This document shows positions 441 to 24,124 of a stretch of DNA of 30,209 bases, in pieces. Source of the DNA: an uncultured Clostridium sp. (GTDB lineage Bacteria; Bacillota; Clostridia; TANB77; CAG-508); NCBI GenBank assembly GCA_900553015.1, contig USBY01000018.1, positions 1-30,209 of the forward strand, read 5' to 3'. The notes beneath the pieces are model-generated. The model was not told the origin of the DNA. It was given only the letters and a program-made list of their open reading frames with translations, and did no database searches. Each line of letters opens with the position of its first letter. Position 1 is the stretch's first letter. The translations under genes were made by a program, and so were the position numbers.

Positions 441-3131
441 ATGAAAAATGATGCTATAATTACAGAACTTGAAGATGGAGAATTTTTGGCAACAGATATA
501 ATAGAAGTATTTGAAATACCGGACATTGCTATTTTAAATACTAATTTAAATGAGAGAGAGACAACGTTAAAGGTAAAAAACACTTTTAAAGAGTTATTAA
601 GTGAAATTTATATAAGTTGCAATCAAAATAGGCCAAAATGGTATGAAAATGATGACTATAGTATAGAAATTGTTTTTTCATCAACTGAAGTCGAAAATCA
701 AACATTTAATGCAAAAGTTAACATTTACATAATTTTAAGAGGGATAAATGAAAATAAAGAATTTCTAGTAAATAAAATATCAGAATTAAAAAATCTAGTA
801 AAAGTAACACTAAATTATAGTAAGTTTTCAATTAAGGAAATAGATAAAAAATTGGAGACTTTAGAACAAATAAAGTATAGATTTAAGCAAAATAAAAGGG
901 CAATTGTAAAAGATACAGAGGTTCAACAACTTCAAAATATGTACATTCCACAAGTAGATATGTTCGATAGATTTGCAGAAAAAATTACTAATTGTACCAA
1001 AATAGTTAATACATTGATGCAGTATCCTAATTCTCAAGTAATAATAGATTTAATACCTACAGTATTAAATAGTACTGAATCAACTGGATTAGAGCAATTA
1101 GTAAATACATTAGATATATTAAAAAACAATCTTCAAAATGCGAACAGCAATTTTTCGACTATGTTTATAGATAAAGTTTTGTCAAACTATAGATATTATG
1201 AAGAAAGAAAAAATGGACCAATGTTTTTGTATAACATAGTTGTTTGTGCTAATGAGCTATTTATAAACAATATAATAAGTAATTTAAATACAGAATTCGG
1301 AATGACAGAAGATGCGAATATTATTAATTTAAAGAATATTAGCATAGATAATACAGAAATTGATATAGATACATACTTTTATAGCTTACCATGGGTATTT
1401 AACGAAATTATTTTAGATAAGACATCAAGTAATACTATAAATTCTGTATTAAAGAGATTGCCATACATGGTTACAATGGAAGAAGCAACCGAATTTTTTA
1501 GGTTACCATATGGTGATAATCGCTTAACTGCGGGAATAAATATAAATAGACTGGAAAGCGGAATAAAGGAATACAGTAAAAAGGTAATCAATAATGGAGA
1601 TATTATTGTCGGAAATTTAAAAAATGCGGGAAATTCGAACACAAAAATAGGTTTTGATTTAGGCGATTTAGTTAAACATATGCTAATAGTAGGAACTCCT
1701 GGATCTGGAAAGACAACTTTTTCAATTGGATTATTAGATAGAATTTGGAAGGAGTTTTCGATACCATTTTTGGTAATTGAACCAGCAAAAAATGAATATA
1801 GAGCTATGATAGATTCAATTCCAGATATACAAGTTTTTACTCCTGGAAAGGACTTTATATCTCCATATATAATAAATCCATTTATTCCACCTAAAAATGT
1901 TAGATTACAAAGTTATAAAACCGTTTTGAAAACAGCATTTTCTGCTGCAATAGAATTAACAACACCTTTAGATAAACTGTTTGAGGAAACATTAGATGAA
2001 TGTTACTCGAATGCTGGGTGGCTACCATATTATACTATTGATGATGGTGGAGACATTTTCACAATGGATGATTTTTTAAAAACATTTATGCAAGTTTTTG
2101 AAAGAATTGGATATAAAGGAGAAGCATCTAATATAGGCAAAGCTGGATATGTAAGATTGAAAAGCTTACTTAGAATATTTGGAAGTTATAATACAATTCC
2201 AGTAGAAGATTTATTAAAAAAACCAACCATAATTGAGCTTGCAGCAATAGAAAATGAAAAACAAAAATCGCTAATTATAGCACTATTACTATTAAATATC
2301 CAATCATATATTAATGCAAATTATATAGGAACTGGAGAAATGAAAAATTTATTATTACTAGAAGAAGCACATGTATTGTTAGGTGCAAGTGACAAACAAG
2401 CTGATGGCGATGCTAATCCTAGTGCAGTAGCAAAAGAATTATTAGTAAGGATGTTTGCAGAAATTAGAGCACTGGGTCTTTCTATGGTAATTGCAGATCA
2501 ATCACCAGAAAAGGTAACAAGTGACATAATCAAATTAACTAATATTAAACTGGCATTTAATCTGGTCGAGCAGAGTGACAGGGTTATCTTAGGAAATAGT
2601 ACTGCAATGAATGATAAGCAAAAGGAAAGGTTAACACAGCTAGGCCCAGGAGAAGCATATTTTTATATGAATGGATTAAAAGAACCAGAAGAAGTAATAA
2701 CAGAAAATTATAGGGAAAAAGTAAATATACGAACCACTATTTCAGATGATGAAATAGCTAAAAGAACTACATATTGGAAGGATAAACAAGATAAATTAAA
2801 GCCATATTTAGAATGCCAGTTTATAAATTGTTGCAATGATGGATGTGATTATAGAATTAGAGCAGAAGCAGATGAATATTCAAGAAGAATATATAGCAAA
2901 TATTTTAACGAAGAAAGTAAAGATAAAGAATTATTAGTACAAGTGTATTCAAATTTTAAAGAAGAATTAGATGCAATTGTAAATAAAGATGTAAATAATA
3001 AATTATTATGGTGTACTAAGGTACATTTCTTAAGAAGAATAATTTATTATACAAAAATAAACTTTTCAAAAAAAGCAGCACGAAAAACATTATTAAACGA
3101 GATTAATAAGGAGGCGAAAGAAAATGAATGA
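441..3131 (+). CDS. HerA/FtsK-superfamily (DUF87-like) P-loop ATPase with a ~400-aa unassigned N-terminal domain and a C-terminal Cys cluster
   Basis: Walker A GTPGSGKTT (nt ~1690-1716) preceded by IGFDLGDLVKHMLIVG, typical of HerA/DUF87. Walker B LLLLEEAHVLL (the 'EEAH' HerA signature). ADQSPEKV resembles the HerA ATQRP/Q-R segment. C-terminal CQFINCCNDGCDY. No hydrophobic segments. Confidence 0.7.
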   Translation: MKNDAIITELEDGEFLATDIIEVFEIPDIAILNTNLNERETTLKVKNTFKELLSEIYISCNQNRPKWYENDDYSIEIVFSSTEVENQTFNAKVNIYIILRGINENKEFLVNKISELKNLVKVTLNYSKFSIKEIDKKLETLEQIKYRFKQNKRAIVKDTEVQQLQNMYIPQVDMFDRFAEKITNCTKIVNTLMQYPNSQVIIDLIPTVLNSTESTGLEQLVNTLDILKNNLQNANSNFSTMFIDKVLSNYRYYEERKNGPMFLYNIVVCANELFINNIISNLNTEFGMTEDANIINLKNISIDNTEIDIDTYFYSLPWVFNEIILDKTSSNTINSVLKRLPYMVTMEEATEFFRLPYGDNRLTAGININRLESGIKEYSKKVINNGDIIVGNLKNAGNSNTKIGFDLGDLVKHMLIVGTPGSGKTTFSIGLLDRIWKEFSIPFLVIEPAKNEYRAMIDSIPDIQVFTPGKDFISPYIINPFIPPKNVRLQSYKTVLKTAFSAAIELTTPLDKLFEETLDECYSNAGWLPYYTIDDGGDIFTMDDFLKTFMQVFERIGYKGEASNIGKAGYVRLKSLLRIFGSYNTIPVEDLLKKPTIIELAAIENEKQKSLIIALLLLNIQSYINANYIGTGEMKNLLLLEEAHVLLGASDKQADGDANPSAVAKELLVRMFAEIRALGLSMVIADQSPEKVTSDIIKLTNIKLAFNLVEQSDRVILGNSTAMNDKQKERLTQLGPGEAYFYMNGLKEPEEVITENYREKVNIRTTISDDEIAKRTTYWKDKQDKLKPYLECQFINCCNDGCDYRIRAEADEYSRRIYSKYFNEESKDKELLVQVYSNFKEELDAIVNKDVNNKLLWCTKVHFLRRIIYYTKINFSKKAARKTLLNEINKEAKENE

Positions 3132-3327
3132 TTTTATGCAAGGGTTAAGAGACATGGTAAAAGACGATGAAGAATACGCAACTGACTTAAGCAAAAAAAC
3201 AGAAATAAATGATGTACAAGATACAAAAGATGATGCAGATGAACCAATAGATGATTTATCAATTTCCAGAACCCGAGATGTACCAAAGGAAAATAAGAAA
3301 AAAGAAGATGATGAGTTAGTAAAATAA
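3124..3327 (+). CDS. Small, highly acidic, probably disordered protein (67 aa), translationally coupled to the ATPase
   Basis: Strong SD AAGGAGG 8 nt before ATG 3124; overlaps the ATPase stop (ATGAATGA); composition D/E/K-rich. Confidence 0.5.
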   Translation: MNDFMQGLRDMVKDDEEYATDLSKKTEINDVQDTKDDADEPIDDLSISRTRDVPKENKKKEDDELVK

Positions 3328-3364
3328 TTAAGTTATAGAAGGGAGATAGTTAGCAAAACTAACA

Positions 3365-4549
3365 GTGAGAGATATGGAGTTATATAGTGTAATAAAAAAT
3401 GATAGTTTGAATAATGAATTAGTTTGGAAATGTTTAAATGAAGATTTTAATAACAATAGCCAATTAATTGTTATGGAATCAGAGGAAGCTTTATTTGTTA
3501 ACAATGGTGTAATAGTTGAAAGCTTTACAGGTGGAAAATATACTTTAAATACAGAAAACTATCCTTTTATAAAAGGCTTAAGAAAGTCTATTTCTGGAGG
3601 CGAAAATGCTTTTAATTGCAAAGTATATTTTGTTAACAAAACTCATAAATTAGAATTACTCTGGGGAACAGATTCTCCTATACAAATAAGGGATGCAGAA
3701 TTTAATTTCGCAGTAGGAGTAAGAGCAAGAGGAAGTTATTCTATACAAGTAGCAGATGCAAAAAAATTTTTAATAAAACTTGTTGGAGTTAATACACAAT
3801 CATTTACAGAAGAGGAATTAAAGAATCAATTTAGAACAGTATTTCAAACAAAAATAAAAGTAATAATCGCCAATGTTATGAAAAATTCACATTATACAGT
3901 TTTAGATATGAATACTGAGTTAGAAAGTATTGGTGATATGGCAAAAGAGCAACTAGCAGAGGTTCTAGATGAATATGGTATTAGGTTAGTTAATTTTTAT
4001 GTTTCTGATATTTCTATACCAGAAAATGATCCAAACTATAAAATAATTAACGAAGCATATGCAAAAGCTCATGCAGGAAAAATAGAAATAGATGTACAAG
4101 GAGAAATGTGGAATAAGCTAACTGCAAAAGAGCTTGCAAAAGATTTAGCAAATAATCCTAATGCAGGTGGAGTAGCTGCAGCAGGAGCAGGTATTGGTAT
4201 GGGAATTGCTTCAGCAGGAGCTTTTGGAAATATTGCTAATCAATTGTTTTCTCCTTTAAATGAAGGAAACAACAATAGTAATAATAATGCTAATACTAAT
4301 ACTAATACACAAATGCAAAGTGAACCTAAAAAATCTAGATTTGCACCTAAAACTGCGAATGTCGAAAATAATACAACAACGGAAAAGATGACCAAATGTC
4401 CTAACTGTGGTAAAGAGATTTCAGAAAATAGTAAATTCTGTAGCAATTGTGGAGCTAAAATAGAAACAAGCTATTGTAAAAATTGCGGAGAAAAATTAGA
4501 ACCAGGAGCTAAATTTTGTAGTAATTGTGGAACTAGGAGGGATGAATAA
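3365..4549 (+). CDS. SPFH/band-7 (stomatin/prohibitin/flotillin-like) protein with C-terminal double zinc ribbon (COG4260/YdjI-like)
   Basis: N-terminal region MELYSVIKND..NELVWK...LIVMESEEALFVNNGVIVESFTGGKYTLNTENYPF matches the conserved COG4260 start. Gly/Ala-rich linker and N/T-rich low-complexity stretch. Terminal KCPNCGKEI...FCSNCGA...YCKNCGEKL...FCSNCG gives two Cys4 zinc ribbons. Start is either GTG 3365 or ATG 3374. Confidence 0.6.
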   Translation: MRDMELYSVIKNDSLNNELVWKCLNEDFNNNSQLIVMESEEALFVNNGVIVESFTGGKYTLNTENYPFIKGLRKSISGGENAFNCKVYFVNKTHKLELLWGTDSPIQIRDAEFNFAVGVRARGSYSIQVADAKKFLIKLVGVNTQSFTEEELKNQFRTVFQTKIKVIIANVMKNSHYTVLDMNTELESIGDMAKEQLAEVLDEYGIRLVNFYVSDISIPENDPNYKIINEAYAKAHAGKIEIDVQGEMWNKLTAKELAKDLANNPNAGGVAAAGAGIGMGIASAGAFGNIANQLFSPLNEGNNNSNNNANTNTNTQMQSEPKKSRFAPKTANVENNTTTEKMTKCPNCGKEISENSKFCSNCGAKIETSYCKNCGEKLEPGAKFCSNCGTRRDE

Positions 4550-5211
4550 TGAAGAATAATAAGGTGGTTTATTCACTAATACTAGTTGTTGCATTAATAA
4601 TAATTAATGTAGTAATTTTTCTATCATTACAAACATATTCAGCAAGTAGAATTTTAAATATTATATGCTTAAATGTAGCTATTATAATTTTATGGTTTTT
4701 TATATTTATAAATTTAAAAGAGGCTAATAATAAATATCTAAATTATACTAAAATACCAATTGTTTTAGTATATGCATTGCTAACAATTATATTAAGTATA
4801 ATTTTAATAATAATTAATCCGGAAACAGTAGTTAGTACTGTAATTATCCAGGTAATTATTCATGGGATATTTGTAATTTCAATACTAACAAACAAATTAG
4901 CAGATAATACAACCGAAAGTTTAGAGAAAAATCAAAATAATAGAGTAGAGGATATAAGAAAAATTTCTAATGAATTAAATACTCTTTTGTTAGGGATAAA
5001 AGATGATAAATTATATAAAAGAATAGAGAAAGTTTATGATTCATCAAGAAGTCTAAAAGTGAATATTAATGGAAATTCAGAAGAAATAGACAATACTATT
5101 TTGAATTTAATAGATTTATTAAAAATAAAAATTAGCGAAAATAATTTAACAGAAATAGAGAATGTTATAACATATATAAACAATAAATTTATGGAAAGAA
5201 ATAATTTATAA
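4549..5211 (+). CDS. Polytopic membrane protein (about 4-5 TM helices) with C-terminal coiled-coil-like soluble tail
   Basis: Start ATG overlaps the previous stop (TAATG). N-terminal 120 aa strongly hydrophobic; C-terminal K/E/N-rich heptad-like sequence. Confidence 0.55.
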   Translation: MKNNKVVYSLILVVALIIINVVIFLSLQTYSASRILNIICLNVAIIILWFFIFINLKEANNKYLNYTKIPIVLVYALLTIILSIILIIINPETVVSTVIIQVIIHGIFVISILTNKLADNTTESLEKNQNNRVEDIRKISNELNTLLLGIKDDKLYKRIEKVYDSSRSLKVNINGNSEEIDNTILNLIDLLKIKISENNLTEIENVITYINNKFMERNNL

Positions 5212-5227
5212 TGGGGGAGAAGATAAA

Positions 5228-6430
5228 ATGGTAAAATTAAAAGATGCAAAATGTCCAAACTGTGGAGCAAATATAGAAGTTAATGATGCGTTAGAAAAAA
5301 CAATTTGTCAATATTGTGGAAGTACAGTAATTATAGAAGAAGCAATAGAAAAATATAAAGTAGAGCTTTCTGGCAAAGTAGAAGTAGAAGGAATAAAAGG
5401 AAGAAATGATAAATTAACACAAGCTAAAAAGCATATGTCATTAGCAGAATATGATGTAGCTAAAAAAATACTATTGGAAATTATTGCTGATGATCAATTT
5501 GATACAGAGGCATATATAGAATTAGTAAAAGTAGATATTGAACTTTTAGAAAAAATGAATTTTGATCCAACTACTTCAAAATTTAGAGATTCAAAAGGAT
5601 GGAATCTATTAGAAGAAGTTGATAAAAATTACGAAAGAATTAAAAAAATAGATGATAATAATATAGCTGAAGGTTTACTTTCAGACTACAAAGAAAAATT
5701 AGATCATTATTGTAATATGATAGAGGAGGCCAAAAATCAAGATAAAAAATTAGCGGAATATGTAGAAATATTAAATGGTCATCTTGAAAAATTACTAAAA
5801 ATATCGGATGAATGTGCAGGAGCATGGATAAATGGAATTTGTGGAAAATATTTTGATATGATTGGACTATATACAAATTATGAAGCTAATGCAATGAATG
5901 GGTCAAATTTTACAGATAGATATAAATTGCGTAAATTTACTAAAATTACAAGAGATGGGATTGTAGAAGGAGAATATCGCAAAGTAAGTAATAATTATAC
6001 GACCAATCCATTAAAAGAAAATTTGCATTTAACAAATCCGAATAAAATATTAACTTTTGATCAAATAGGAGAAAGTATAAAAGAAATAGATGAAATGACA
6101 CCTACATATATAGCAGAATCAACAAATATTAGGAATAAAGAAATTGATAAAGCAAACGGAAAACTTGAAAGAGAAAATGCGTATGCAGATGTAAAAAATA
6201 CTTTAAAATATATTTGGATAGGCTTTCTATGCCTTTGGGTATTAGGTTTCGTTATAGCTACAATAATGACTTTAATAAATAATTTTGTAGCAGGAATAGC
6301 AATGATTATTTTCTTAGATAGTTGGTTAGTATTAATACCAATTGGTTGGATAAGAGATGCAAAAGATGATATTGATTATAATAAAAAATTAAAAGAAACA
6401 AATAAGCTTTTAAAACAAGATAAGGTATAA
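5228..6430 (+). CDS. Protein with N-terminal zinc ribbon, helical/repeat region and two C-terminal TM helices
   Basis: SD GGGGAGAAG upstream. CPNCGANIEV-x-CQYCGS Cys4 ribbon at aa 9-31. C-terminal YIWIGFLCLWVLGFVIATIMTL and IAMIIFLDSWLVLIPIGWI hydrophobic helices. Confidence 0.55.
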   Translation: MVKLKDAKCPNCGANIEVNDALEKTICQYCGSTVIIEEAIEKYKVELSGKVEVEGIKGRNDKLTQAKKHMSLAEYDVAKKILLEIIADDQFDTEAYIELVKVDIELLEKMNFDPTTSKFRDSKGWNLLEEVDKNYERIKKIDDNNIAEGLLSDYKEKLDHYCNMIEEAKNQDKKLAEYVEILNGHLEKLLKISDECAGAWINGICGKYFDMIGLYTNYEANAMNGSNFTDRYKLRKFTKITRDGIVEGEYRKVSNNYTTNPLKENLHLTNPNKILTFDQIGESIKEIDEMTPTYIAESTNIRNKEIDKANGKLERENAYADVKNTLKYIWIGFLCLWVLGFVIATIMTLINNFVAGIAMIIFLDSWLVLIPIGWIRDAKDDIDYNKKLKETNKLLKQDKV

Positions 6431-6486: not shown

Positions 6487-6534
6487 AGATGCACATAAAA
6501 AAGACAAAATAAGGACAACACAGTTATAAATTAG

Positions 6535-6745
6535 TCTTTAAGAGAGCTAGATGTATGCTGAAATTCTAGTAAGATAAAATATAATTGTTATCACCTTATA
6601 TGTTGCGAAACTGAACTAATAGTAAGTTTTGTCGTATATTCTGCGTTAAAGAAATTAGAGAGAATAACGTAAGTTATTAAATTAGGTGGTACCGCGGAAT
6701 TATGCCCTTTTCGTCCTAAACAGGATGAAAAGGGCTTTTTGATTG
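6535..6745 (+). promoter_or_regulatory. T-box riboswitch leader (Ile-specific) with terminator, upstream of ileS
   Basis: AGAGA motif at ~6539. Candidate specifier AUCA at 6590-6593. Canonical T-box sequence AATTAGGTGGTACCGCGG at ~6679-6697. Terminator GCCCTTTTCGTCC...GGATGAAAAGGGC plus TTTTT at 6704-6740. Confidence 0.85.
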
Positions 6746-6809: not shown

Positions 6810-9800
6810 GTGTACAAAAAAGTAGAACTTAAAGACGGTTTTGTAGGCATGGAAAATGATGTAGCAAAACTATGGAAAGAAAAAGACATTGTTAAGAAAA
6901 ACTTTGCAATGAACGAAGGAAAAAGATACTTCACATTTTATGATGGACCTCCAACAGCAAATGGAAGACCACATGTTGGACATATCGAAACAAGGGTAAT
7001 GAAAGACATTATACCAAGATACAAAGTAATGAAAGGTTACAAAGTATTAAGAAAAGCTGGTTGGGATACACATGGACTTCCAGTTGAACTAGAAATAGAA
7101 AAAGAATTAGGAATTTCAGGAAAACAACAAATAGAAGAATATGGTGTAGAAAAATTCGTAAAGAAATGTAAAGAAAGTGTTTTCACATATGTTCATCTAT
7201 GGGAAGAAATGACAAACAAAGTAGGATTCTGGGTAGATATGGAAAAACCATATGTAACATATCATAATGAATATATAGAATCTGTATGGTGGGCATTAAA
7301 AGAAATGTGGAAAAAGGGATTATTATATGAAGGTCATAAAGTAATGCCATATTGCCCAAGATGTGGAACAGCACTTTCATCACACGAAGTTGCACAAGGA
7401 TATAAAGATGTAAAAGATTTAACTTGTATAGCTAAATTTAAAGTAAAAGGTGAAGATAATAAATATATATTAGCATGGACAACAACACCTTGGACTTTAC
7501 CATCAAACTTAGCACTATGTGTTAATAAAGCTTACACATATGCAGATGTTAAAGTAAATGTTGGAACTGAGGAAGAACCAAAATATGAAGTATATGTTTT
7601 AGCTAAAGATTTAGTAGAAACCGTTTTAAAAGACAAAGAATATGAAGTTTTAAAAGAATATAAAGGAACAGAATTATTAGGAACAAAATATGAACAATTA
7701 ATGCCATTTGCAAAAGTAGATGGAAAAGCATTCGAAGTAATCCATGGGGACTATGTAACATTAACAGATGGTACAGGAATAGTACACATTGCACCAGCAT
7801 ATGGTGAAGATGATAGTTTAGTTGCAAAACAAAATGGAATAACTTTTGTAAATTTAGTAGATAAAGAAGGAAAATTTGTTCCAGAAGTAGAACCTTGGGC
7901 AGGTAAATTCGTAAGAGATTGTAACGAAGGTATCTGTAAATGGTTAGAAGAAGAAAATAAATTGTTCAGTAAAGAAAAACATCTACATTCTTATCCACAC
8001 TGCTGGAGATGTGACACACCACTTTTATATTATCCAAAAGAGAGTTGGTTTGTTGCAATGAGCAAACTAAGAGACAATTTATTAAAAAATAATGACACAA
8101 TAAATTGGATGCCAGAAACAATAAAAACAGGAAGATTTGGAAAATTCCTAGAGAATGTTATAGATTGGGGAATCTCAAGAGATAGATATTGGGGAACTCC
8201 ACTTCCAATTTGGACTTGTGAATGTGGTCACCAAGAATGTATTGGAAGTATAGCAGAATTAAAAGAAAAAGGAATAAATGTACCAGACGATATAGAACTT
8301 CATAAACCATATATTGATGATGTACATTTAAAATGTCCACACTGTGGAAAAGAAATGACAAGAGCAAAAGAAGTTATAGATTGTTGGTTCGATTCTGGTT
8401 CAATGCCTTTTGCACAATGGCATTATCCATTCGAAAACAAAGAAATATTCGAAGCAAACTTCCCAGCTCAGTTTATTTCAGAAGCTATAGACCAAACAAG
8501 AGGATGGTTCTATACACTACTTGCAGTTTCTACATGTTTATTTGATAAATCATCATATGAAAACTGTATAGTATTAGGACATGTTCTAGATGATAAAGGA
8601 CAAAAAATGTCTAAATCTAAAAAGAATGGTGTAGATCCATTTGAATTATTAGATACAGTTGGAGCAGATGCTACGAGATGGCATTTCTATACATGTAGCG
8701 CACCATGGATTCCAACAAGATTATCTGTAAAAAGTGTACAAGAAACACAAAGAAAATTCTTAAGTACATTATGGAATGTATATTCATTCTATGTTCTATA
8801 TGCAGAAATAGACCAATTTAATCCATTAAACTACAAAGACTTTAAAGTAACAAATGTAATGGATAAATGGATACTTTCTAAAATGTATACATTAATAAAA
8901 GAAGTAGATGCAAAATTAGATAAATATGACATAACAGGAGCTGCTTTATTAATAGAAGACTTTACAGATGAACTTTCTAATTGGTATGTTCGTAGAAATA
9001 GAGAAAGATTCTGGGCAAGCGGAATGGAAGATGACAAAGTTGGAGCATATGTAACTTTATATAATGTTTTAGTAAATTTAGTAAAAGTTGCAGCACCATT
9101 TGTACCTTTCATAACAGACGAAATTTACCAAAACTTAGTTGTTAATTTAGATAAAGAAGCACCAGAAAGTGTACATCTATGCTTATGGCCAGAAGTAAAT
9201 GAAGCTGAAATAGATAAAGACTTAGAAAAAGAAATGGACTTAGCATACAAGATTGTTAAATTAGGTAGAAGTGCAAGAAATGCAGCTAATATCAAAAATA
9301 GACAACCACTTTCAGAAATGCTAATTTCTGTAGGAACACTTCCAGAATACTATGGAGACATCGTAAAAGATGAATTAAATGTAAAAGAAGTTGTTCTAGG
9401 AGCAGATATGTCTAAATATGTTGACTTCGAAATAAAACCAAATCTACCAGTTTTAGGAAAAGAATATGGAAAACTAATACCAAAAATAAGAGAAGCAATC
9501 TCTAAACTAAATCAAATGGATTTAGCAAACAAAGTAAAAAACGGTGGAGTAGAATACATCGAAGTAGAAGACGAACAAATACCATTAGACGAATCTAACT
9601 TATTAGTAACAATGCAAGGTAAAGAAGGATATGCCTTCGCAGGTGAAGGTGAACTTGGAGTTGTATTAGAAACAACAATAACACCAGAACTAAAAGAAGA
9701 AGGATATTTAAGAGAAATTTTATCTAAAGTACAAAACATGAGAAAAGATAGAGACTTCGAAGTATTAGATAGAATAAACTTATACTTTGCAAATTGTGAT

Positions 9801-9950
9801 ACATTAAAAGAAGTTATAGAAAAATATAAAGAACAAATAATGAAAGACACATTAGCAGACAACATCTTCTACAATGAAAAGAGAGACAACTATGTAGAAA
9901 CAAAAATAAACGATGAAAAAATAGATATAGATGTTGAAGTAGTAAAATAA
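6810..9950 (+). CDS. ileS: Isoleucyl-tRNA synthetase, type 2 (long, eukaryote-like form)
   Basis: HIGH motif [17 protein letters not shown] motif, length 1046 aa, zinc-finger-like CPHCG. GTG start with AAGGAGG SD. Confidence 0.95.
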
Positions 9951-12162: not shown

Positions 12163-13185
12163 GTGAACGTTTCAGATTTTTATTATGACTTACCAGAAGA
12201 ATTAATAGCACAAACACCTATAGAAAAAAGAGATGAATCAAGATTAATGGTTTTAAATAGAGCAAGCCAAACTATAGAACATAAAACATTTAAAGACATA
12301 ATAGAATACTTAGAGCCAGGAGATTGTTTAGTAAGAAATAATACAAAAGTAATACCAGCAAGATTATATGGTAAAAAAGCAACCGGAGCAAAAATAGAAT
12401 TTCTTCTATTAAATAGAATAGAAGGAGATATATGGGAATGTATTGTAAGACCAGGACATAAATTAAAACCTGGTACAGAAGTAGAATTTGGAGATGGAAT
12501 ATTAAAAGCAAAAGTACTAGATGTAATGGAAGGTGGAACAAGAAAAGTAGAATTTAAATATGAAGGAATATTTAACGAAATTCTAGATAAAATTGGTTTA
12601 ATGCCACTTCCACCATATATTCATGAATCTTTAAAAGATAATGATAGATATCAAACTGTTTATGCCAAATATGAAGGTTCAGCAGCAGCACCAACAGCAG
12701 GATTACATTTTACTCCAGAACTTTTTGAAAAAATAAAGGCAAAAGGAATTGATGTAGCAAATGTAACATTACATGTAGGAATTGGAACTTTTAGACCAGT
12801 AAAAGTAGAAAATGTAGAAGAACACCATATGCATTCAGAACATTTCTATATAAAACAAGAAGATGCAGATAAAATAAATAATGCTAAGAAAAATGGAAAA
12901 AGAGTTATAGCCGTAGGAACTACTTCTTGTAGAGTACTAGAAACAATAGCAGACGAAAATGGAATGGTAAAACCTACAGAAGGAGACACACAAATATTTA
13001 TTTATCCTGGTTATAAATATAAATGTTTAGATGGTTTAGTAACAAATTTCCATTTACCAGAATCAACACTAATAATGCTTGTATCTGCATTAGCAGGTAG
13101 AGATTATATTATGAAAGCATATAATGAGGCTGTCAAAGAAAGATATAGATTTTTCAGTTTTGGAGATGCAATGCTTATTTTGTAA
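12163..13185 (+). CDS. queA: S-adenosylmethionine:tRNA ribosyltransferase-isomerase
   Basis: N-terminus [29 protein letters not shown] is the hallmark QueA start; GTG start; 340 aa. Confidence 0.9.
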
Positions 13186-13199
13186 GATAGGAGAAAATT

Positions 13200-13961
13200 A
13201 TGGTTATACATACAAAAAAGCAAGTTAAAACAAAAACTATTCATAAAAAGATGAATTTGCCACAAAGTTTACGAGATAAAATAGATAAATTTTGGAAAGA
13301 ACAAGTAAAAGAAAATCCAAACTTATTTAATGGGGAAGTTTGGAATGTAACAAAAATGGAAGAAAATAAAGCTGATATACTTCTAACAATAGAAAAAACA
13401 GATTATGCACACTACTTATATGATGAAAGACATGGCATAGAAGAAAAATATGCTTGCCACAATCTTGCAGGAGGAACATATATTGTTACTAAAGATGGAT
13501 ATGCTGTTGTAGGTGAACTAGATAACACAACTTCTTATCCTAGGATGATGCAAGTTTCTGGTGGAGGTATAGACGAAAAATTTGATATAGTAAATGGTGA
13601 ATTTGATTTAATAAAAACAGCAAAAAGAGAATTAAAAGAAGAATTAAATTTAGATTTAGACAATAAAGAACAAATAGAAAATTACAATTTCGAATATATA
13701 GAAAAACCAGAAGGAAAAAGACATTCATACTGTGTAATATTAAAAGCATATTCAATGTATACAAAAAATCAATTAGAAGAGCATTTTAATAAGTATTATC
13801 AATTTTTAGAAGAAACAGAAGGAGAAAAGGAATTTAAAAAATTACATTTTTTAAAACTAGGTAGAGCAGTAGAAGAATTGGACAAGCTAGATAATCCAAA
13901 AAGATTATATGTAAGACAACTTCTAGAAATAGAAGATAGAGGGGTGTTGAATAATGAATAA
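13200..13961 (+). CDS. Nudix-like hydrolase family protein (degenerate Nudix box)
   Basis: SGGGIDEKFDIVNGEFDLIKTAKRELKEELNL contains a REuxEE core with imperfect spacing. Confidence 0.4.
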   Translation: MVIHTKKQVKTKTIHKKMNLPQSLRDKIDKFWKEQVKENPNLFNGEVWNVTKMEENKADILLTIEKTDYAHYLYDERHGIEEKYACHNLAGGTYIVTKDGYAVVGELDNTTSYPRMMQVSGGGIDEKFDIVNGEFDLIKTAKRELKEELNLDLDNKEQIENYNFEYIEKPEGKRHSYCVILKAYSMYTKNQLEEHFNKYYQFLEETEGEKEFKKLHFLKLGRAVEELDKLDNPKRLYVRQLLEIEDRGVLNNE

Positions 13962-14406
13962 AAAAGAATTTGAAAAATATTTAGACAGCCTAGAGCTAGA
14001 TAAAAAAGAGTACTGTATAATAAGTGGCGGAAGTTTATTAATGCATAATTTAAAAGAAGAAACAGATGATGTGGATTTATATGTAACACAAAATTCGTTT
14101 GATAAGTTAAGTAAAAGATTTAATGTACATATAAGTGGAAAGCCATTTCCAAACCATTATACTGTAAACGAAAAAACTGAGGCTGTTTTAGTTAAAGATT
14201 TACAAAACGAAAAAATATATAATATAGATGGATATCCTTGTCGTTCTATAATAGATGATTATAATTGGTATAGACAAAATGGTAGGCCAAAGGATTTAGC
14301 TAGTGCAGATAAGATAGATACCATGTTTGAAAATATAGCCAAAGAGTTCAATTGTAAAAAAGAAGAGGTCACTGAAAGCGAAATTTTTAAATATGTAAAT
14401 AAGTAG
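13954..14406 (+). CDS. Minimal nucleotidyltransferase (Pol-beta superfamily)-like protein
   Basis: ISGGSLLMHNLKEETDDVDLYV matches the hG[GS]-x(9-13)-DhD NTase motif; overlaps the previous stop by 8 nt. Confidence 0.4.
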   Translation: MNKKEFEKYLDSLELDKKEYCIISGGSLLMHNLKEETDDVDLYVTQNSFDKLSKRFNVHISGKPFPNHYTVNEKTEAVLVKDLQNEKIYNIDGYPCRSIIDDYNWYRQNGRPKDLASADKIDTMFENIAKEFNCKKEEVTESEIFKYVNK

Positions 14407-14414
14407 GTGATTAT

Positions 14415-16023
<1,609 letters not shown>

Positions 16024-24035: not shown

Positions 24036-24124
24036 GCAGATGTGGCGGAACTGGCAGACGCACAGGACTTAAAATCCTGCGAGGGTTAAACCTCGTGCCG
24101 GTTCGATTCCGGCCATCTGCACCA
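24036..24124 (+). tRNA. tRNA-Leu (anticodon UAA), CCA encoded
   Basis: Acceptor stem GCAGATG/CATCTGC, D-arm GGCGGAAcTGGcAGACGC, anticodon loop cUUAAaa, long variable arm CGAGGGTTAAACCTCGTG, T-arm GGTTCGATTCC, 3' ACCA. Confidence 0.9.

Follow-up and report, generated by a model that had tools for sequence, protein, structure and literature searches.

What does a HerA-like ATPase do when none of the usual HerA partners lies beside it? The question is raised by a gene at 441..3131 (+) in a 30,209-nt stretch of DNA from an uncultured Clostridium sp. (contig USBY01000018.1, positions 1 to 30,209; the whole stretch is called the window here, G+C 27%), where an ATG start opens an open reading frame (ORF) of 896 aa. 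The same gene has been called in public assemblies, 100% identical at the locus designated L001 and 98% identical at L012, which comes from an uncultured Clostridia metagenome-assembled genome (MAG), and members of the family are publicly labeled 'ATP-binding protein', 'DUF87 domain-containing protein' or 'hypothetical protein'. A preliminary description had placed the protein among HerA-type defense systems. We favor, as modestly probable, a different answer: the gene would head an operon for an ATP-driven apparatus exporting polymorphic toxins with an acidic leader, present in the window in a toxin-less form.

The ATPase has the following parts:

441..3131 (+), VirB4-like/HerA-superfamily ATPase, 896 aa, 0 transmembrane (TM) helices
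441..1595 (+), N-terminal domain, aa 1-385, with a VirB4 N-terminal domain (NTD)-like predicted fold and a proposed role in docking to a membrane complex
1596..2720 (+), RecA-like ATPase core, aa 386-760
1692..1715 (+), Walker A, G418 T P G S G K424 T425, with G418, G423, K424 and T/S425 each kept in 60/60 homologues
2349..2366 (+), Walker B, L637 L L L E641 E642, then A643-H644, residues counted in the 60-sequence alignment
2721..3128 (+), C-terminal tail, aa 761-896, all-helical in the AlphaFold2 (AF2) secondary structure, predicted local distance difference test (pLDDT) ~84-94
2814..2846 (+), Cys cluster C792-x4-C797-C798-x3-C802, forming with C858 (nt 3012-3014) a putative 4-Cys metal site

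Conservation was counted across 60 diverse ATPase homologues, with identity down to 26%. In Walker B, E/D641 and A643 are kept in 60/60 sequences and E642 and H644 in 59/60, and R572, K609, R676, D686, Q687 and K703 are also invariant or almost so. Since the Walker motifs and these other core residues are near-invariant, the ATPase is expected to be catalytically active. The HerA/FtsK-superfamily ATPase domain proposed to begin near aa 400 was confirmed, with Pfam assigning aa 390-617 to the DUF87/HerA central domain (E 6.4e-11, passing the cut-off) and with Walker A and B intact. Other sequence models match in part: NCBIfam HerA_antiphage (34.5 bits, cut-off 800) and helicase_HerA (24.1 bits, cut-off 970) give partial C-terminal matches, NF053655 'DNA-translocating ATPase CedD' covers part of the core (65 bits vs 600, E 5e-18), PADLOC models match weakly and over the core only (mad8, E 2e-14; HerA models, E 1e-10), and the sole phmmer match in the PDB is HerA 4d2i (E 1e-3). 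By structure comparison, HerA, DptH and the VirB4 C-terminal domain (CTD) match the core equally well; the full-length AF2 model has a pLDDT of 89 (60-66-sequence alignment). The core also partly matches the C-terminus of NF033849, a 'serine-rich protein' of anaerobes (E 4e-11), and this match and that to CedD hint at further membrane-linked or low-complexity-linked relatives of the ATPase clade.

The region that sets the protein apart is its N-terminus. The preliminary description had found nothing recognizable there, and indeed aa ~1-385 matched no family in Pfam, NCBIfam, PADLOC or PHROG, and none by phmmer against the PDB or by profile search. A phmmer search with aa 1-400 against 1.8 billion representative proteins returned 145 clusters (50% identity), all of them N-termini of ~860-945-aa proteins with the same architecture or fragments thereof; at the sequence level the domain is confined to this ATPase family. 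Modeled alone, it gives a confident AF2 structure (pLDDT 93.8, predicted TM-score 0.92) with the mixed alpha/beta fold that had been guessed. This fold is not a HAS barrel, also as supposed, and most likely is that of the VirB4 NTD proper rather than a degenerate ATPase fold, since no HerA, FtsK or TrwB chain is among its fold matches. The ATPase thus has the two-domain layout of VirB4, a VirB4-type NTD followed by a RecA-like CTD, and is best read from the models as a secretion-type (VirB4-like) motor, with a HerA-like core sequence in a VirB4 architecture, rather than as a HerA defense helicase. In the R388 structure the VirB4 NTD reportedly touches VirB3/VirB8. The proposal that the N-terminal domain is itself an effector or sensor was not borne out: no nuclease, Sir2, TIR or protease fold is among the fold matches of the domain, its polar residues are almost never invariant in the 60-homologue alignment, and in relatives it is the next gene that carries a toxin.

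The tail (aa 761-896) likewise has no Pfam family and no sequence relative in the PDB. The Cys cluster reported in it is present as CQFINCCNDGC (C792, C797, C798, C802); three of its cysteines are part of a family-wide pattern, C792-x5-C798-x3-C802 with a distal C858 (59/60, 52/60, 56/60 and 56/60, respectively), whereas C797 is poorly kept (8/60) and drops out of the proposal. C792, C798, C802 and C858 would make a putative 4-Cys site, from which metal binding is inferred.

The window operon (441..6430) comprises five genes, the ATPase gene being followed by:

3124..3327 (+), 67-aa acidic protein, 33% D+E, a toxin-less stub
3374..4549 (+), YdjI-like SPFH protein (Band_7_1), with an alternative GTG start at 3365
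4549..5211 (+), 220-aa protein with four TM helices (4-TM) and a ~100-aa cytoplasmic helical tail, by hydropathy
5228..6430 (+), 400-aa Zn-ribbon/TPR-like protein with two C-terminal TM helices (TM 329-347, 357-375)

The SPFH protein matches PF13421 (E 5.4e-44), a family of which we take YdjI itself to be a member, together with Zn_Ribbon_1 (E 2e-18) and DZR (E 1e-11) in Pfam; its features are a conserved hydrophobic stretch rich in Gly and Ala, an N-rich low-complexity linker and two C-terminal zinc ribbons, and no TM helix is predicted in it. The 220-aa protein matches no Pfam family above cut-off. In the 400-aa protein, an N-terminal CxxC...CxxC zinc ribbon (weak Pfam matches) precedes a helical TPR-like region, and one iterated hidden Markov model (HMM) finds both this protein and a 197-aa Zn-ribbon/TPR protein encoded upstream of the ATPase gene elsewhere. 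The operon stops short of a T-box leader (RF00230, 94 bits, E 3e-20) at 6498-6721 (+), which lies upstream of ileS (6810-9950) and has a terminator-like hairpin at 6704-6735. The wider surroundings are housekeeping genes (queA, genes for a NUDIX protein and a GNAT acetyltransferase, and tgt at 12163-16023; tRNA-Leu(TAA) at 24036-24124), and the operon does not obviously lie in any mobile island.

This set of genes recurs. Neighbors were counted with iterated HMMs at 56 non-redundant loci having at least 4 kb downstream, from ORFs called in 92 sources; the HMM-based counts are lower bounds, and ORF calling is crude at high-GC loci. An acidic ORF (at least 18% D+E) is among the seven ORFs after the ATPase gene at 52/56 loci, mostly directly downstream. 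The Band_7_1 SPFH protein was found at 51/56, a ~225-aa 4-TM protein at 41/56 (in every case encoded immediately 3´ of the SPFH gene), the Zn-ribbon/TPR protein at 42/56, a 208-aa protein (P208) at 30/56 and a TM-anchored YidD-domain protein at 14/56. The same neighborhood is kept around distant homologues, 46-61% identical, in Clostridia, Spirochaetia and other groups. Components of the type IV secretion system (T4SS) core are not conserved next to the ATPase, VirB1, VirB6 and VirB8 not having been searched for in the 80 genome-scan loci. As the preliminary description had noted, no NurA-like nuclease gene is adjacent in the window, and no Sir2 or DUF4297 gene either (Pfam, PADLOC, NCBIfam). 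The genome scan placed ATPase relatives in at least 544 species-level genomes of both monoderm and diderm phyla, from Clostridia, Bacilli, Bacteroidales, Spirochaetes, Planctomycetes and Kiritimatiellia to Opitutaceae, Synergistetes, Fibrobacteria, Desulfovibrionaceae and Actinomycetota; the carriers are mainly gut, rumen and termite MAGs, with several isolates. Cultured carriers include Ruminococcus albus AR67, Faecalicatena contorta ET55, Bengtsoniella intestinalis BP47G, Faecalibacterium prausnitzii, Fretibacterium fastidiosum SGP1, Paludibacter sp. 221 and Microbacterium sp. HA-8.

Some loci have additional genes. At L005:7507-7974, and also at L008, L010, L025 and others, a 150-180-aa protein in which 2-3 TM helices are joined to a YidD domain (PF01809, E 6e-20) is encoded directly upstream of the ATPase; the window operon lacks this gene. 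Elsewhere YidD is a small stand-alone membrane-insertion factor. At L049:11604-14822, L043 and L008:10693-11208, the ATPase and acidic toxin genes are separated by genes for 1-5 paralogous ~170-210-aa multi-TM proteins, which could be membrane immunity proteins or additional apparatus subunits. Neither a phage nor a general plasmid origin was upheld for the family: the phage matches amount to two partial ones in unannotated 'Bacteriophage sp.' fecal contigs and one weak terminase-like PHROG match to the core, and a single near-full-length plasmid homologue was found (Priestia megaterium). That homologue, at L092:7713-14186 on the mobilizable plasmid pN447-3.1, is a 963-aa ATPase with 31% identity followed by a 1135-aa protein with ~20 acidic repeats and a helical C-terminal domain; both are labeled 'hypothetical protein', and no SPFH gene is annotated near the ATPase homologue.

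Encoded downstream of the ATPase and ranging from 63 to 1374 aa across loci, the acidic proteins of the relatives usually have an N-terminus like MDEEFDTSVDTSD, then hundreds of D/E-rich repeat residues with a short repeated linker motif and finally a globular C-terminal domain, the acidic gene being followed by a small ORF. The start M-[DGSE]-[DE]-E-[FY] is present in 33/58 acidic proteins, compared with 64/1487 of all ORFs. Pfam scanning of the C-terminal 280 aa of 52 acidic proteins identified these domains:

DUF6782 zincin, 7/52
Gln_amidase/papain-fold toxin 1 (Tox-PL1), 4/52
SprT-like zincin, 4/52
WHH nuclease, 2/52
Colicin-DNase, 2/52
ADP-ribosyltransferase (ART) exoenzyme (ADPrib_exo_Tox), 1/52
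Endonuclea_NS_2, 1/52
TNT NADase, 1/52
Peptidase_C39_2, 1/52

The last 200 residues of the 52 proteins fall into 32 unrelated clusters. Between loci whose ATPases are 86-93% identical, the toxin N-termini are 62-80% identical and the C-termini unrelated; conversely, a toxin domain can be 70% identical between loci whose ATPases are 69% identical. Because the N-termini are conserved while C-terminal toxin domains are swapped between close loci, we read the acidic protein of the relatives as a polymorphic toxin; by sequence, the proteins of the relatives pair a conserved N-terminal region with C-terminal toxin domains that can be exchanged, and the 67-aa protein of the window does not. The number of repeats is not fixed even where the ATPase is identical, protein lengths being 687 vs 750 aa at L010/L011 and, in a further set, 689, 701 and 725 aa. 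The N-termini do not look like signal peptides, since they open with acidic residues, and Pfam found none of the LXG, WXG and RHS modules in the four full-length acidic proteins scanned. The small ORF 3´ of the acidic gene, seen in 29 cases, co-varies with toxin type.

One arrangement stands somewhat apart. A DUF6782/SprT-like HExxH zincin on a short acidic protein (...HEMWHAxQQQ...YDFEGYENQMVEAEAR...) is always followed by a ~98-aa conserved protein, as at L023, L024, L041, L049, L050 (3205-3918 + 3921-4214), L052, L075 and L080, and these loci frequently hold a second, longer acidic protein too.

What, then, is the 67-aa protein of the window? The preliminary description had singled it out as the only soluble partner of the ATPase; it does appear to be a key partner and a real gene, but not the sole soluble one, given an SPFH protein without TM helices. 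Start and ATPase stop share an 8-nt overlap (ATGAATGA), and the start lies behind a ribosome-binding site (RBS), AAGGAGG, an arrangement indicating translational coupling of the gene to the ATPase. The protein aligns to the C-terminal ~70 residues of acidic proteins of 73, 109, 175 and 367 aa from the same ATPase clade, with the motifs R-[DN]-[DE]-F-[LM]-x-[GS]-L-R and terminal K-x-EDDP in common, and the clade's 755- and 1274-aa proteins (L009, L015) carry an NDF motif, in 1-5 copies, shortly before the toxin domain. Because it aligns to this pre-toxin C-terminal module, and the NDF motif precedes toxins, we regard the protein as a pre-toxin stub, lacking acidic repeats and toxin domain; the window holds no immunity gene. 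As a family-wide pre-toxin signal, the motif NDF[LMV]xxL[RK] was rejected, being limited to the window's ATPase clade, with other clades having a DYMNSHNYG repeat or neither motif.

Of the codons at which the stub differs from its counterpart at L012, 7 are synonymous and 3 non-synonymous, the corresponding numbers for the ATPase being 78 and 19. The short form is also seen again in species with ATPases of only ~61% identity. From the ATPase-overlapping start and RBS, the synonymous excess and this recurrence, the stub is judged to be a maintained gene under apparent purifying selection. Since the window client keeps only the pre-toxin motif and an acidic C-terminus, either the window copy exports a small acidic peptide, or the stub is a plug or regulator, or the apparatus has been disarmed.

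The region upstream of the operon may add a layer of control. A promoter-like site at 185-213 (TGTACA-17-TATAAT with an extended TG) is followed by a leader of ~230 nt (214-440) up to the ATPase start. Within it, a perfect (AC)11.5 dinucleotide tract lies at 279-301 and differs in length from one near-identical locus to the next, counted as (AC)11 in the window, (AC)10 at L001 and (CA)6 at L012. The tract falls in a possible 24-codon leader ORF from 250, MKRLETLAGV(HT)n..., so slippage there would shift the frame, and may provide phase-variable or attenuator-type control of the operon. With a minimum free energy of -51.5 kcal/mol, the fold of the leader RNA (215-440) is more stable than those of shuffled controls (z -3.4); the last elements of the leader are a 21-bp hairpin (about 355-398) and a U-run just 5´ of the ATPase RBS, and no Rfam family matches it.

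Taken as an export apparatus, the operon might work as follows. The ATPase would form a ring, as its HerA and VirB4 relatives do. Its VirB4-like N-terminal domain would dock this ring on a membrane platform of the 4-TM and Zn-ribbon/TPR proteins scaffolded by the SPFH protein, a step we infer from what the VirB4 NTD does and from the YdjG/H/I precedent. The client would be the product of the translationally coupled next gene, in relatives a protein without signal peptide that has an MDEEF N-terminus, a long, disordered poly-acidic region and an exchangeable C-terminal toxin, and ATP hydrolysis would drive its export; more speculatively, the polyanionic leader might be threaded through the pore as DNA is in related motors. 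The genes themselves suggest a dedicated route, since no signal peptide or known trafficking domain is seen in the clients and these are linked to the ATPase and membrane genes.

Several observations weigh against this interpretation. Kinship with VirB4 would be at the level of the fold only, because hhalign of the 60-sequence family alignment against R388 TrwK aligns the ATPase domain alone (E 0.068); the VirB4, CagE and TraC families of Pfam and NCBIfam do not match the window ATPase, and VirB4-type families are absent among the 25 commonest families over 55 members of the ATPase family. No channel-forming component was identified in the operon, and the family is present in diderms without an obvious outer-membrane component. 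The small ORFs look immunity-like by position and size only, with weak Pfam matches (Imm-NTF2-2, E 0.035; one DUF7675), and the commonest C-terminal domain, the DUF6782/SprT-like zincin with its 98-aa partner, may be a processing peptidase or accessory rather than a toxin. Finally, the window's own client comes with neither toxin nor immunity gene, and 5/8 members of its ATPase clade are toxin-less too, for which reason the acidic protein may serve as something other than cargo.

The least improbable of the alternatives is a membrane-maintenance or stress module. Here the SPFH, 4-TM and Zn-ribbon proteins would form a YdjI/H/G-type surveillance platform, the ATPase would replace PspA in remodeling or disassembling the platform or would extract the acidic protein, and toxins would be secondary passengers. 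B. subtilis YdjI is an SPFH protein that carries a low-complexity stretch as well as a Zn finger, without TM helix, whose membrane localization needs the membrane proteins YdjG and YdjH, and YdjG starts MIISYKCPNC, as read from a primer sequence (PMC8581546). The window SPFH protein falls in Band_7_1 (E 5e-44) with a low-complexity and Zn-ribbon tail as described for YdjI, its partners parallel YdjH (membrane) and YdjG (N-terminal CPNC zinc ribbon), and the window clade retains the operon without a toxin and with an acidic stub under apparent purifying selection. Yet the window operon contains no PspA/ESCRT-III gene by Pfam, and PspA is not among the Pfam families recorded at L001-L011, the 80 genome-scan loci not having been screened. 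Such a module would also leave unexplained both the VirB4-type N-terminal domain and the shuffled toxin domains and immunity-like genes after the ATPase, and we consider it rather unlikely.

More doubtful still is the defense framing of the preliminary description, in which a HerA-type ATPase senses infection and frees an effector, either its own N-terminal domain or a toxin released from an immunity protein, for anti-phage activity or abortive infection. The PADLOC matches to mad8 (E 2e-14) and HerA models (E 1e-10) point this way, as do HerA defense complexes among the best structural matches of the core, and some loci lie in mobile islands beside recombinases, WYL regulators or AAA_14 genes. 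Those PADLOC matches, however, are weak, partial and limited to the ATPase core, HerA_antiphage scores 34.5 bits against its cut-off of 800, and a VirB4-NTD-like domain without effector fold occupies the N-terminus. Sir2, NurA and DUF4297 partners are absent from the window scans and the 56-locus neighborhoods, where the recurrent partners are membrane and SPFH proteins rather than defense effectors; a conserved leader with toxin/immunity polymorphism is the signature of exported competition toxins, and the window copy sits amid the housekeeping genes ileS, queA and tgt. We think this explanation improbable.

A remnant or minimal conjugation-type T4SS for DNA or protein transfer, with the acidic proteins as DNA-mimic or polyvalent-type proteins passed to recipients, could draw on the VirB4-like two-domain architecture, on a relaxase and serine recombinases within 6 kb in spirochete loci and on the homologue on the mobilizable P. 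megaterium plasmid with its 1135-aa acidic repeat protein next to it, but is very improbable given that the recurrent neighbors (acidic, SPFH, 4-TM, Zn-ribbon/TPR, P208, YidD) include no relaxase and no VirD4-type coupling protein, that among L001-L011 a relaxase is recorded only at the spirochete loci L005-L007, that VirB4 family models give no sequence match and that the window context is one of chromosomal housekeeping genes.

Returning to export of acidic-leader toxins, we asked how far the apparatus is new. Searches of the accessible full-text literature, which leaves out most subscription journals, turned up no account of the gene set. An MDEEF and poly-acidic module with ATPase, SPFH and YidD is not among the trafficking modes in the polymorphic-toxin survey of Zhang, Aravind et al. 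2012 (PMC3482391), a text in which SPFH, Band-7 and YidD do not occur and HerA/FtsK appears only for the type VII secretion system and T4SS. The operon thus is apparently undescribed, although of a kind already known, ATPase-driven delivery of polymorphic toxins. It is conceivable, if somewhat short of an even chance, that the operon represents an unrecognized type of secretion system in which the ATPase on an SPFH platform reads the MDEEF signal, threads the acidic leader and exports toxins, a platform to which many lineages would add the YidD-domain and 208-aa proteins and whose hosts would be gut, rumen and termite anaerobes and some Actinomycetota.

If true, this would be a new ATP-driven route of interbacterial antagonism in gut anaerobes, with carriers including Ruminococcus, Faecalibacterium, Lachnospiraceae, Bacteroidales and Treponema; to our knowledge, most of these groups have no characterized toxin-delivery machines. 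It would also mean that the VirB4 two-domain motor has been recruited beyond type IV secretion, and that an SPFH/YdjI-type scaffold is tied to a translocation ATPase, and it raises the testable idea that a polyanionic polypeptide may be handled by motors of a family whose known task is to pump DNA. The toxin-less form in the window would serve as a natural control for an apparatus without cargo, and cultured carriers make the question directly testable.

The operon can be compared with several known systems. With the T4SS ATPase VirB4/TrwK (PDB 7o42, 4ag5), the window ATPase shares the two-domain architecture without sequence-level membership, and it has an extra ~135-aa Cys4 helical tail; VirB2/3/6/8/9/10/11, VirD4 and a relaxase are not conserved neighbors of window-type ATPases, which are linked instead to SPFH, 4-TM, Zn-ribbon/TPR, YidD-domain and acidic toxin genes. 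With HerA (HerA-NurA of archaea, HerA-Sir2/HerA-DUF4297 of bacterial defense, the DptH C-domain) it has in common the HerA/FtsK-type core (DUF87, Walker A/B), but not the ~100-aa HAS-barrel N-domain or a nuclease, Sir2 or DUF4297 partner; equivalog scores are far under cut-offs, and the context is one of membrane proteins and polymorphic toxins. In type VII secretion, the FtsK-like EssC/EccC exports LXG/WXG polymorphic toxins, with flotillin assistance in S. aureus. The window ATPase differs in having one ATPase domain, not three, and no TM or FHA domains, the relatives' toxins are without WXG100/LXG (Pfam) and have a leader that is poly-acidic and not a helical hairpin, and other membrane components are present.

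In common with PspA-YdjGHI of B. subtilis, the operon has a YdjI-type SPFH protein ending in a Zn ribbon, a polytopic membrane partner and a zinc-ribbon membrane protein that starts with CPNC (..KCPNCG in the window). The 4-TM and Zn-ribbon proteins resemble YdjH and YdjG by architecture only, and in place of PspA the operon has a VirB4-like ATPase and an acidic (toxin) protein. Against polymorphic toxin systems (PMC3482391), finally, the family is set apart by its MDEEF and poly-acidic N-module and its ATPase/SPFH/YidD apparatus, and the window copy by the lack of a toxin domain; what the relatives share with those systems is a conserved N-terminal trafficking region, variable C-terminal domains of known toxin families and a small downstream gene.

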